Made by a program: the position numbers and the translations under genes. Positions 5,888 to 7,101 of a DNA stretch of 64,000 nt are shown here, piece by piece; the stretch's first letter is position 1; each line of letters opens with the position of its first letter. This stretch comes from an uncultured Erysipelotrichaceae bacterium (GTDB lineage: Bacteria > Bacillota_I > Bacilli_A > RF39 > UBA660). Where the stretch lies: NCBI GenBank assembly GCA_902785135.1, contig CACZXL010000001.1, forward strand, positions 2,109-66,108, read 5' to 3'. The notes under the pieces were generated by a model that worked only from the letters and a program-made list of their open reading frames with translations, made no database searches and had not been told where the DNA came from.

Positions 5888-7101
5888 ATTTTTTCATTAA
5901 TTCTATCTCTAATTTTTCTTATACCACTAATGGAATAATTGTATTTAAAAGATAAAGATATATCACTAGTTTTATTTATATAAAATTCATAACAAATTTT
6001 ATATTTGATACTATATTTTTCTACTATTTTTAAAATTGTTTCTTCAAATACATCTATAGGCATACCTCTATATAATGGAGAGTAAGTCTTTTTTACAAAT
6101 TTAGAAGTAACATAAGATAAACCTACTCCTAATAATATGGGTATAATAATACTAAAACCTACTGGCATAGTAACTCTATTCAAACAATAATATGTTGAGT
6201 TAGACACTATAAAACAAATCAACATACTATTAAAATGAAAAGCTTTACCAAAGGATCTTTTTGATAACCAAAAAGAAGTTAGTATGAAGATGCATTCTAC
6301 AAAAGTATTATTTAATCTAGCGACCAATAATATTAGAACAACACTAAAGATATTCCAAATTAAACTAAGAAAAATATAGATTATTATCGTTAATTTTTCA
6401 ACCTTGTCTTTCTTTTTAAATTTTTTAAGATTATTTTGATAATTTTTTCGCAATTTTAGCAGCGATTTCTTTAAGTTTTGTTTCTTTTGCGAAAATGAAT
6501 AAGCTTCCGCCTCCCCACATAAAAGTACACCTCCTTCGTATAACTTATAAGTAATAATCATCAATAGAATATAATCAAAGTTTAATATAAAATTGATAAC
6601 AAAGTTACTATAATCAATTTTTAAATTACCATTTCTAATTATTCCAGATATAATCTCATATAAAATCATTAACAAGGATATTTTAAATAGTTTAACAATC
6701 CTTTTAAAATTGAATCTCTTTTCATATATTATTACTGAAATAATAAAAACGGATAAATCTAAAATTATTGAAAATAATACATTATTAACAATATTCTTCG
6801 TATAATAACCATTAAAGTAATTGATTCCTGTTACAAATAAGCCATAAATTTTCATTTTCGTTGAATAATCATTAAAAGTCATACTTAATAATATATAAGT
6901 ATAAATATACAAACTAATAAAATACCAAATATAATCTAATTTATATTTTAGTATGATATTACTAATTTTTAAAACTATAGTATTATTAGTATCTATACCA
7001 AAATAATTTAATCCAACTATCTTAAGTATAAAAACTATTACTAATACAAAAAGATACACTTTTATTGATGTTGATAAATATTTTTTATAATCTTTAAACA
7101 T
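5872..7101 (-). CDS. Membrane protein: N-terminal multi-TM domain + AgrB-like protease module + C-terminal HTH-like domain
   Basis: SKRSFGKAFHFNSMLICF keeps the AgrB R-x6-H-x6-C spacing (codons starting 6258, 6237, 6216); C-terminus ICYEFYINKTSDISLSFKYNYSISGIRKIRDRINEKI resembles a sigma-70 region-4/LuxR HTH. Likely start is ATG 7101 (SD AGGTGA); the track starts at GTG 7110. Confidence 0.65.
   Translation of the reverse strand: MFKDYKKYLSTSIKVYLFVLVIVFILKIVGLNYFGIDTNNTIVLKISNIILKYKLDYIWYFISLYIYTYILLSMTFNDYSTKMKIYGLFVTGINYFNGYYTKNIVNNVLFSIILDLSVFIISVIIYEKRFNFKRIVKLFKISLLMILYEIISGIIRNGNLKIDYSNFVINFILNFDYILLMIITYKLYEGGVLLCGEAEAYSFSQKKQNLKKSLLKLRKNYQNNLKKFKKKDKVEKLTIIIYIFLSLIWNIFSVVLILLVARLNNTFVECIFILTSFWLSKRSFGKAFHFNSMLICFIVSNSTYYCLNRVTMPVGFSIIIPILLGVGLSYVTSKFVKKTYSPLYRGMPIDVFEETILKIVEKYSIKYKICYEFYINKTSDISLSFKYNYSISGIRKIRDRINEKIKKLN
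6431..6520 (-). CDS. Nested out-of-frame 29-aa peptide MWGGGSLFIFAKETKLKEIAAKIAKKLSK, candidate AgrD-like propeptide
   Basis: AAGGAGGTG SD 7 nt upstream of ATG 6520; TAA at 6431-6433; different frame from the host gene; not in the ORF track. Confidence 0.6.
   Translation of the reverse strand: MWGGGSLFIFAKETKLKEIAAKIAKKLSK

Follow-up and report, generated by a model that had tools for sequence, protein, structure and literature searches.

The locus: a short gene nested in an AgrB-like gene

The window analysed here, a 64-kb stretch (64,000 nucleotides, nt) of contig CACZXL010000001.1 from an uncultured Erysipelotrichaceae bacterium, harbors on its minus strand a gene for an AgrB-like membrane protein (5872..7101, hereafter the host gene), within which a much shorter gene lies in another reading frame. 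The nested gene (6431..6520, minus strand) is read in frame +2 of the host, encodes the 29-residue peptide MWGGGSLFIFAKETKLKEIAAKIAKKLSK and ends with the stop codon TAA (6433..6431). It is preceded by the Shine-Dalgarno (SD) site AAGGAGGTG (6528..6536, minus strand), the same bases of which encode Glu-Gly-Gly in the host frame. The minus strand reads TACG-AAGGAGGTG-TACTTTT-ATG, with AAGGAGG at 6536..6530 and ATG at 6520..6518, and the nested ATG is made up of the third base of host codon Leu197 and the first two bases of Cys198. Across the nested stretch the host frame reads GGVLLCGEAEAYSFSQKKQNLKKSLLKLRK. The whole 64-kb window, both strands counted, contains the combination AAGGAGG-N5-10-ATG only eight times. 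In the nested gene, the codons of Ser6-Leu-Phe-Ile-Phe10 (6491..6505, minus strand), with the invariant Ser and the invariant Phe four residues later, specify a proposed lactone ring, and those of A11-K29 (6434..6490, minus strand), which follow a conserved tail pattern, specify a basic amphipathic tail, the proposed leaving group and recognition helix. A first-pass annotation of this DNA had pointed out the SD site, the ATG at 6520 and the 29-codon open reading frame (ORF) at 6520..6431, and this reading of the sequence is confirmed. It had also described the linker as GC-richer, which holds: the GC content is 33% at 6431-6536 vs 20.8% in the host gene and 24.5% in the window, and the nested ORF is GC-richer than the remainder of the gene in 96 of 96 homologues.

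The host ORF extends from a GTG at 7110 to 5872 (412 amino acids, aa), as had been annotated. The host protein itself almost certainly begins at the ATG at 7101 (MFKDY...) and comprises 409 aa, because every homologue opens with MFKDY and P0001, an identical protein in the database, has the same length of 409 aa. Upstream of the host gene lies a promoter-like TTGACA-17-TATAAT (7161..7189, minus strand), a consensus match only, which agrees with the consensus at 12 of 12 positions and is the top match in 5000-7400; no internal promoter of comparable quality was seen before the nested ORF. A terminator-like hairpin with a T-run (5865..5887, minus strand) overlaps the host stop codon. Since the promoter-like site precedes the host gene and the hairpin with its T-run ends it, the host and the nested gene look like one transcription unit.

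Conservation and dual coding

Conservation was assessed in 108 related loci from genomes, metagenomes, and viral contigs. A frame +2 ORF of 26-37 codons is present at the aligned place in 99 of the 99 loci that cover the linker, starting with ATG in 97 and with GTG in two; the host proteins of the loci with a nested ORF share 37-67% identity, and the nested frame is always the same. An SD core of at least five bases (AAGGAG(G)/GGAGG) lies 6-10 nt before the nested start in 90 of 96 homologues, while a comparable SD precedes only 33 of 1892 other ATGs within the homologous genes. Frame +2 of these genes contains 0.105 stops per codon, and stop-free windows of 27 codons make up only 7.8%. The first-pass annotation had suggested checking the homologues for these signals; they retain the internal SD, the start codon, the core of Gly-Ser and hydrophobic residues, and the stop. 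The notion that two genes were joined by a sequencing frameshift was discarded: nearly all linker-covering homologues give one tblastn segment, and the indels in the linker are multiples of three.

The start signals persist where the overlying host residues change. Over the SD the host residues vary (KGG, KGE, KGD, KGV, EGG, QGG) and the AGGAG core stays. The host codon over the nested ATG is TGT, TGC, or TGG only (Cys in 73, Trp in 23 cases), and the near-invariance of host Cys198 results from the nested ATG, which forces these codons. Mean pairwise diversity at codon positions 1/2/3 of the nested frame is 0.34/0.17/0.40 (22 nested codons), i.e. a coding pattern. For the host codons in the linker the values are 0.22/0.40/0.34, so that position 2 varies most; in the rest of the host gene this is reversed, with position 2 lowest (0.15-0.34). 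When the host protein was held fixed and its synonymous codons were resampled (200 trials), the nested frame was open in 25 of 79 sequences (maximum 33) vs 79 of 79 observed, and peptide identity amounted to 0.30 (maximum 0.33) vs 0.61 observed. With the peptide fixed instead, the host frame was open in 6 of 78 sequences (maximum 12) vs 78 of 78, and host identity was 0.38 vs 0.50. The Leu that precedes an A is written CTT in 69 of 69 cases and never TTA, the codon that accounts for 57% of the Leu codons of the family; as TTA at this place would create a TAA in the host frame, its avoidance keeps the host frame open.

The linker stretch is truly dual-coding, with both frames under selection. 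The small frame bears the stronger amino-acid constraint, and the host frame is held at least open and in register. Selection had been assigned to the small frame in the first-pass annotation; the codon-phase and resampling signatures are indeed found there, but the host frame is selected as well and is not a passive carrier. That the nested ORF is a real, selected gene is regarded as practically certain.

Free-standing copies of the peptide gene

A profile search with the peptide, in which the natural 41-aa upstream-extended ORF served as the first row, retrieved 13 database proteins of 29-60 aa (most 29-37), either unnamed or labelled 'hypothetical protein'. One of them, P0131, is encoded in locus L110, 66 nt downstream of the gene for a 444-aa homologue that is 32% identical to the host protein, shows the same three-part architecture and matches the Pfam AgrB family. 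The linker of this enzyme is devoid of a nested ORF, with stops crowding both other frames, and the peptide gene has its own AAAGGAGG as well as a hairpin and T-run before it. A search with the 444-aa protein led to a clade of about 30 proteins. All six loci examined from this sister clade (L110, L111, L112, L113, L121, and L122) comprise an enzyme gene without a nested ORF, followed 50-120 nt downstream by a free-standing peptide gene; encoded peptides are, for example, MNWSLGSWFFFGPKDHWMKLAKKIAKRFE, MTWPKGSILFFGPKDHLMKLAKKIAKILS, MWIGLPSLFFFGPKDHWKKIAEKIAKKFD, and MWDNWGDKTKGSFFFFGPTDHLMKFAKKVSRFFE. An SD motif (AAGGAGG/TAGGAGG) lies upstream of the free-standing gene in five of the six (not in L112), and a small gene of the HTH_26 (XRE-type) family comes after it in five of the six. 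Near-identical peptides of the GPKD type occur in a sister group (L114, L018, L019, and L075), but nested, and L109 shows another divergent nested form with an acidic end. A divergent 377-aa relative (L123, 359-1492), in which Asn and Phe replace the catalytic His and Cys, displays neither a nested nor a downstream peptide ORF, a single case that is only suggestive.

Since the sister clade carries a homologous peptide as a free-standing gene, the peptide is best understood as a separate product, as the first-pass annotation had proposed; the free-standing copy is located just after the AgrB-like gene in six of six loci. Judging from these arrangements, the peptide appears to be an independent gene product that travels with the AgrB-like enzyme and has switched between the nested and the free-standing state during evolution. 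Nested or encoded just downstream, it is accompanied in every case by an AgrB-like protein with the catalytic His and Cys, and it is very probably the cognate partner of this protein.

Features of the peptide

The 78-81 distinct peptides follow the pattern M-x(2-13)-S-[WFLIYAVTM]-[FLIV]-[IFL]-F-[AGS]-[KDEP]-E-D-K-L-K-E-I-A-K-K-I-A-K-K-L-[ASF], in which only the Ser and the Phe four residues later are invariant. Three parts can be distinguished, a short variable N-terminus rich in Gly, Pro, and Trp, a hydrophobic Ser-x-x-x-Phe core, and a basic amphipathic helix. Among 78 distinct peptides, the Ser is written AGT in 57, AGC in 6, TCA in 11, TCT in 3, and TCG in 1 (AGY 63, TCN 15); because both codon families write it, the amino acid Ser itself is selected. 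The core, with Ser, hydrophobic residues at ring positions 2-4, Phe and then A/G/S, agrees with the pattern of an AgrD ring, which is a pattern match only, and 24 ring variants occur among the 78 peptides. Deep-branching members read F-[AG]-P-[KT]-[DN], with a Pro two residues past the ring. The tail carries a net charge of +5 and has a hydrophobic moment of 0.46 vs 0.24 for shuffles. An amphipathic basic helix is thus present, yet conservation is concentrated in the non-helical S-x3-F core. Both the Ser-x4 ring pattern and the C-terminal amphipathic helix of the first-pass annotation agree with these data, cyclisation being the predicted part.

The peptide tail (window 6431-6460 together with 6412-6430) resembles the N-terminal amphipathic helix of canonical AgrBs (L117, C. 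taeniosporum), a likeness that may hint at how the overlap arose.

Architecture of the host protein

From N- to C-terminus, the host protein consists of a membrane domain, a basic linker, a peptidase domain of AgrB-like type, and a helix-turn-helix (HTH)-like domain. Its family comprises 807 homologues, the best 120 of which are nearly all full length (about 400-436 aa); these stem from uncultured AT-rich Bacillota of rumen and gut. No PDB relative was found by sequence. A first AlphaFold2 (AF2) model was poor, with a predicted local distance difference test (pLDDT) score of 68, whereas a second model built from 128 sequences reached 79.5 and is usable.

In this model, the N-terminal domain (aa 4-193; 6532..7101, minus strand) forms about six helices (8-31, 58-79, 84-108, 111-130, 135-160, and 170-196). 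The first 195 residues have no Pfam match and no detectable relatives. A comparison with the S. aureus AgrC sensor, a weak test, gave no similarity either, and the idea of an AgrC-like sensor domain was dropped. The dual-coding linker (aa 194-233; 6412..6531, minus strand) is modelled as a disordered loop (194-209) that leads into a basic helix (206-233). The loop is the only segment with a pLDDT below 50 and is overlapped by the SD, the ATG, and the N-terminal half of the peptide, while the codons of the peptide tail overlap the basic helix. According to the model, the overlapped region, a low-confidence loop and a basic helix, appears to be a tolerant site for overprinting.

The AgrB-like domain (aa 229-345; 6076..6426, minus strand) matches Pfam AgrB (PF04647) over profile positions 9-124 of 185 (E 1.5e-8, 34.7 bits, cut-off 23). 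In a MAFFT alignment with five annotated AgrBs (from S. aureus, two C. estertheticum plasmids, C. taeniosporum, and L. curvatus), His292 (6237..6235) and Cys299 (6216..6214) align with His77 and Cys84 of S. aureus AgrB, with identical H-x6-C spacing, and both residues are invariant across 128 family sequences. The naming of the host as AgrB-like in the first-pass annotation is borne out by these matches. Past the fourth helix of this domain the chain runs into a soluble, presumably cytoplasmic domain of about 60 residues (aa 350-411; 5878..6063, minus strand; pLDDT 87-95), tentatively HTH-like. It has no Pfam match; Foldseek gave local matches to KorA and to sigma-factor region 4 (root-mean-square deviation about 2.3 Å over about 60 residues, E >1) and no match for the membrane part of the host protein. 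With an AgrB-like peptidase fused to a confidently predicted HTH-like domain (window 5878-6063), the protein may have a DNA-binding output that is tethered to the membrane. The helices, the basic linker and the requirement that the HTH be cytoplasmic lead us to infer a topology with the N-terminus inside, six helices, the linker inside, four helices, and the HTH inside. His292 and Cys299 would therefore lie at the inner face of the membrane.

Proposed maturation and alternative explanations

The nested peptide is probably the substrate of the AgrB-like enzyme, which would remove its tail and close a lactone between Ser6 and Phe10. This reading is based on the pairing with an AgrB-type Cys/His enzyme and on the invariant Ser-x3-Phe, after which come a small residue and a charged tail. 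For the further step, maturation to a Ser-lactone signal, the chances seem about even or slightly better. One transcript, bounded by the promoter at 7189..7161 and the hairpin at 5887..5865, would yield both the 409-aa enzyme and the 29-aa peptide, the latter by independent initiation at the internal SD and ATG. It is supposed that the cationic helix carries the peptide to the inner membrane face, where His292 and Cys299 would be situated according to the predicted topology. Cys299 would then attack the Phe10-Ala11 bond, as AgrB does on AgrD, and release the tail AKETKLKEIAAKIAKKLSK, and the hydroxyl of Ser6 would resolve the acyl-enzyme to a five-residue lactone. The product would be MWGGG-cyclo(SLFIF), with a predicted lactone [M+H]+ of 1096.53. 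As the precursor is leaderless, a second protease step would be unneeded. The varying ring and exocyclic sequences, i.e. the 24 ring variants and the hypervariable N-terminus, may represent specificity types of a secreted signal, similar to pherotypes.

Several points weigh against this reading. The AgrD models TIGR04223 and PF05931 (NCBIfam, Pfam) match none of 35 nested peptides at E<=10 and neither of two further peptides at E<=1; canonical AgrDs run as positive controls reached 33.2, 21.8, and 21.2 bits (cut-off 19) as well as 15.2 bits. Canonical AgrD possesses an N-terminal amphipathic leader of about 20-25 residues that is needed for membrane targeting. In the nested peptides such a leader is absent, as the first-pass annotation had rightly remarked: 76 of 78 have only 3-8 residues, counting the Met, ahead of the Ser, and the other two have 10 and 14. 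The tail is basic (+5) and lacks the Pro-x-Glu/Ser-Leu segment or the acidic E-P-x-x-P-x-E-L type of the canonical AgrD tails examined (DEVEVPKELTQLHE, NECKMPKSLYKID, and FDEPEMPESLD). Most autoinducing peptides (AIPs) use Cys, and Cys never replaces the Ser here. On the enzyme side, the last third of AgrB is missing from the AgrB-like domain, and with it the conserved P-A-D-T-x-x-R-P segment and the two final helices. Neither a receptor kinase nor a response regulator could be assigned to the peptide, and the copies in phage DNA show no kinase gene among the downstream genes examined. Finally, translation, cleavage, and cyclisation of the peptide are processes that we infer from sequence. The peptide appears to work like AgrD but is not a member of the AgrD family by sequence; of the candidate AgrD in the first-pass annotation, the ring pattern and the pairing with the enzyme have stood, whereas membership in the family by sequence has not, as the models do not match.

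The absence of AgrD matches and of an identified receptor would also suit a real but uncyclised peptide, which could be a linear small membrane-associated protein, e.g. an accessory or regulatory subunit of the host protein that might control whether its HTH domain is released or active, or a cationic amphipathic peptide resembling phenol-soluble modulins (PSMs) or delta-toxin, perhaps linked to phage lysis. The tail, a basic amphipathic helix with a charge of +5 and a moment of 0.46, would be in keeping with such a role; one peptide weakly matches a frog antimicrobial-peptide model, and in phage DNA a holin-like gene precedes the copies, joined in at least L014 by an upstream M23 endolysin-like gene. 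However, the residues of the helix vary freely, and the sole invariant residues, Ser and Phe(+4), show the spacing of an AIP ring and stand just before a small residue and the charged tail. Moreover, the protein paired with it always retains the catalytic His and Cys, and where both are lost the peptide is absent. A linear peptide, the main rival of the lactone reading, is considered rather unlikely, though it deserves to be taken seriously.

Far less probable are two explanations that deny the peptide a life of its own. Initiation at 6520 might be followed by a programmed +1 frameshift, giving a shorter AgrB-like isoform with the small frame as the true 5' end of AgrB. A chimera of peptide and host indeed scores 40.5 bits against Pfam AgrB (positions 2-124) vs 36.7 bits (9-124), and the tail resembles the N-terminal helix of some AgrBs, e.g. 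KKLAEKIAFKLATKI of C. taeniosporum, but the gain is only 3.8 bits and concerns a low-complexity helix. The context of the stop is unconserved, with 36 contexts, last codons such as GCA, GCT, AAA, AAG, and TTC, and either TAA or TAG as the stop. A slippery site is lacking, a second stop often comes next, and in the six loci encoding the peptide downstream of the enzyme gene a fusion is impossible, which makes this explanation very improbable. Still harder to maintain is that host codons give rise to the ORF by chance (K/E-G-G giving the SD, xxA-TGY the ATG) or that an RNA or DNA element is what is conserved. The SD does fall on host Gly-Gly codons and the ATG on a host Cys codon, and a third-position A before TGT is common in AT-rich DNA. 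Yet the host residues vary in such a way that the nucleotide signals persist (only Cys or Trp over the ATG, KGG/KGE/KGD/KGV over the SD), the observed openness (79 of 79 vs 25 of 79) and peptide identity (0.61 vs 0.30) exceed those of the resampled sequences, variation is concentrated at nested third positions, and the Ser switches between AGY and TCN. With a free-standing homologous gene in existence, the comparative data already contradict this explanation.

Genomic neighborhood and phage carriage

Beside the host gene, the window encodes a 237-aa AgrC-type kinase core with one transmembrane helix (5080..5793, minus strand), which matches HATPase_c_5 and, weakly, the AgrC model. A complete agrBDCA locus is not present, as the window holds only this core, and tblastn, an insensitive test, gave no AgrA-like match in the window. 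Comparison of the window copy (5080-5793) with loci L003, L013, L016, L021, L024, and L047 revealed a graded loss of the membrane sensor among kinase orthologues, from 435 over 297-323 to 235-249 aa (one helix); the window copy is a short form. In L016, the full-length kinase is found beside a canonical agrB (216 aa) and agrD (39 aa, MKKLLVSALVAIGSAIGTAATMGCIIFMFDEPEMPESLD; ring CIIFM, tail FDEPEMPESLD), and the TIGR04223 score of the latter is above the cut-off. This agrB-agrD pair (6659-7453, minus strand) is convergent to the kinase and adjoins a member of the host family with its own nested peptide. L016 thus houses two AgrB-type systems, and the window has lost the canonical pair. Since the orthologues are graded in length and the full-length copy in L016 sits by canonical agrB-agrD, the window kinase is probably the relic of a separate, lost canonical agr set and likely not the receptor of the nested peptide, a candidacy that was rejected on the same grounds.

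Chromosomal loci syntenic with the window carry genes for MreB, a GT4 transferase, the host protein, the kinase, CspA, HPF, and a CHAP protein. The window also encodes a 426-aa protein (2850-4130) with a segment resembling type IV secretion system (T4SS) pilins, just under the Pfam cut-off, and a CHAP peptidase domain; it is kept in the syntenic loci. The peptides of syntenic chromosomal loci end in ...K-L-S/T-K or I-F-K, and their host linker is four residues longer. Most copies outside this synteny, many of them phage-borne, end in ...K-L-A, K-I-A, or K-L-F. Going by these sequences, the copies in chromosomal synteny and the other copies seem to form separate lineages.

Many copies of the host family reside in phage or prophage DNA, including 29 IMG/VR contigs, several of which are 38-46 kb long (phage-like loci L002, L007, L008, L009, L014, L028, L031, L038, L040, L046, L057, L066, and L067, as well as L080-L108); in deposited phage genomes, no match to the family was found. 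In the phage setting the gene follows a holin-like gene (about 100 aa), and at least L014 has an M23 endolysin-like gene upstream. A conserved cassette lies downstream, encoding proteins of about 170 aa (MYNNPY...QMQQP), about 290 aa (Gly-rich), twice about 155 aa, and about 118 aa, four of which match PHROG families of unknown function (16490, 20016, 28802, and 3754). Six of the 29 viral contigs (L094, L098, L100, L101, L102, and L103) start or stop inside the host-family gene. A possible cause is assembly breaks, the conserved C-terminal half being common to phages and chromosomes.

A much more far-reaching but rather doubtful possibility is that the locus constitutes a self-contained module of peptide communication, in which one transcript would supply the maturation enzyme, a leaderless serine-lactone precursor, and a membrane-tethered HTH output. 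Temperate phages that infect uncultured Bacillota of gut and rumen would be the main agents of its spread, and its ring variants would serve as phage or strain 'languages', an analogue of arbitrium built on AgrB chemistry. Arbitrium itself uses an unrelated linear peptide and a cytoplasmic receptor.

Comparison with known systems and implications

One of the closest known systems is AgrB-AgrD of the staphylococcal and clostridial agr system (peptidase C75; TIGR04223/PF05931), likewise consisting of a membrane enzyme with His-x6-Cys and a short ribosomal peptide. AgrB trims AgrD at its C-terminal tail in the course of closing a ring of five residues (PMC10885120), and serine lactone rings are known from S. 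pseudintermedius and GBAP (PMC3673130). As in AgrD, the nested peptide displays a nucleophile and four residues ending with a hydrophobic one, followed by a charged tail, and the sister clade retains the order of agrB-agrD, enzyme before peptide. Unlike AgrD, the peptide has no match to the AgrD models, no leader, a basic tail, and always Ser. The host protein differs from AgrB in the added six-helix N-terminal domain and the C-terminal HTH-like domain and in lacking the last third, and the locus differs from agr in that the enzyme gene contains the peptide gene in a different frame and neither AgrC nor AgrA can be assigned.

In Enterococcus faecalis, the propeptide gene fsrD is merged with the AgrB-type gene fsrB, is translated separately and gives rise to a serine-lactone ring (PMC7028047, PMC3673130), which resembles the present arrangement, with the ring of the nested peptide being a prediction. 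fsrD occupies the 3' end of fsrB in the same frame (PMC7028047), unlike the nested peptide, which is encoded in frame +2, mid-gene, and upstream of the AgrB-like domain. GBAP, with its nine-residue ring and N-terminal leader, is also unlike the nested peptide. The position of fsrD is disputed. PMC7028047, citing the primary paper, places it just downstream and in frame, while the review PMC3673130 speaks of 'a different frame'; the in-frame fsrD within fsrB that the first-pass annotation had quoted as precedent is therefore supported as to the frame by the former source and contradicted by the latter.

Before Ribo-RET, the only bacterial out-of-frame internal genes described were comS in srfAB of Bacillus subtilis and rpmH in rnpA of Thermus thermophilus (bioRxiv 10.1101/520783). 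The nested gene shares with them the same-strand, out-of-frame position and the internal SD and ATG; its start signals are conserved and its frame is under purifying selection, as is characteristic of the comS/srfAB type. comS also encodes a small regulatory peptide in a quorum-controlled operon. What sets the present case apart from comS and rpmH is that the nested product is the presumed substrate of the protein encoded by the host gene, and that about 100 diverged homologues and a natural un-nested version exist. Phage-borne agr genes have been described for phiCDHM1 of C. difficile and for the Paenibacillus phages Davies, Emery, and Abouo (PMC3901668). AgrB-type and peptide genes on temperate-phage-like genomes, here the IMG/VR contigs, are common to both, although phiCDHM1 carries separate canonical agrB, agrD, and agrC, unlike the nested arrangement. 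The literature searched contained no report of an out-of-frame nested AgrD-like gene. What is new here is the family of peptides, the build of their precursor, and the way the genes are arranged; the enzyme chemistry follows the known AgrB type.

Among bacteria, very few same-strand nested genes in another frame are well supported. About 100 diverged copies, a dual-coding signature that can be measured, and a natural control clade without nesting make the family a clean model for the origin and maintenance of overprinting. Its peptides were missed by AgrD models and gene callers alike, and metagenomic 'orphan' AgrB-like genes may conceal their own peptides internally. If the proposed mechanism is true, AgrB-type chemistry would work on a leaderless precursor, and no second protease of the MroQ or SpsB type would be required. 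Since phages of uncultured Bacillota from gut and rumen carry these genes, peptide signals encoded by phages may occur in these ecosystems.

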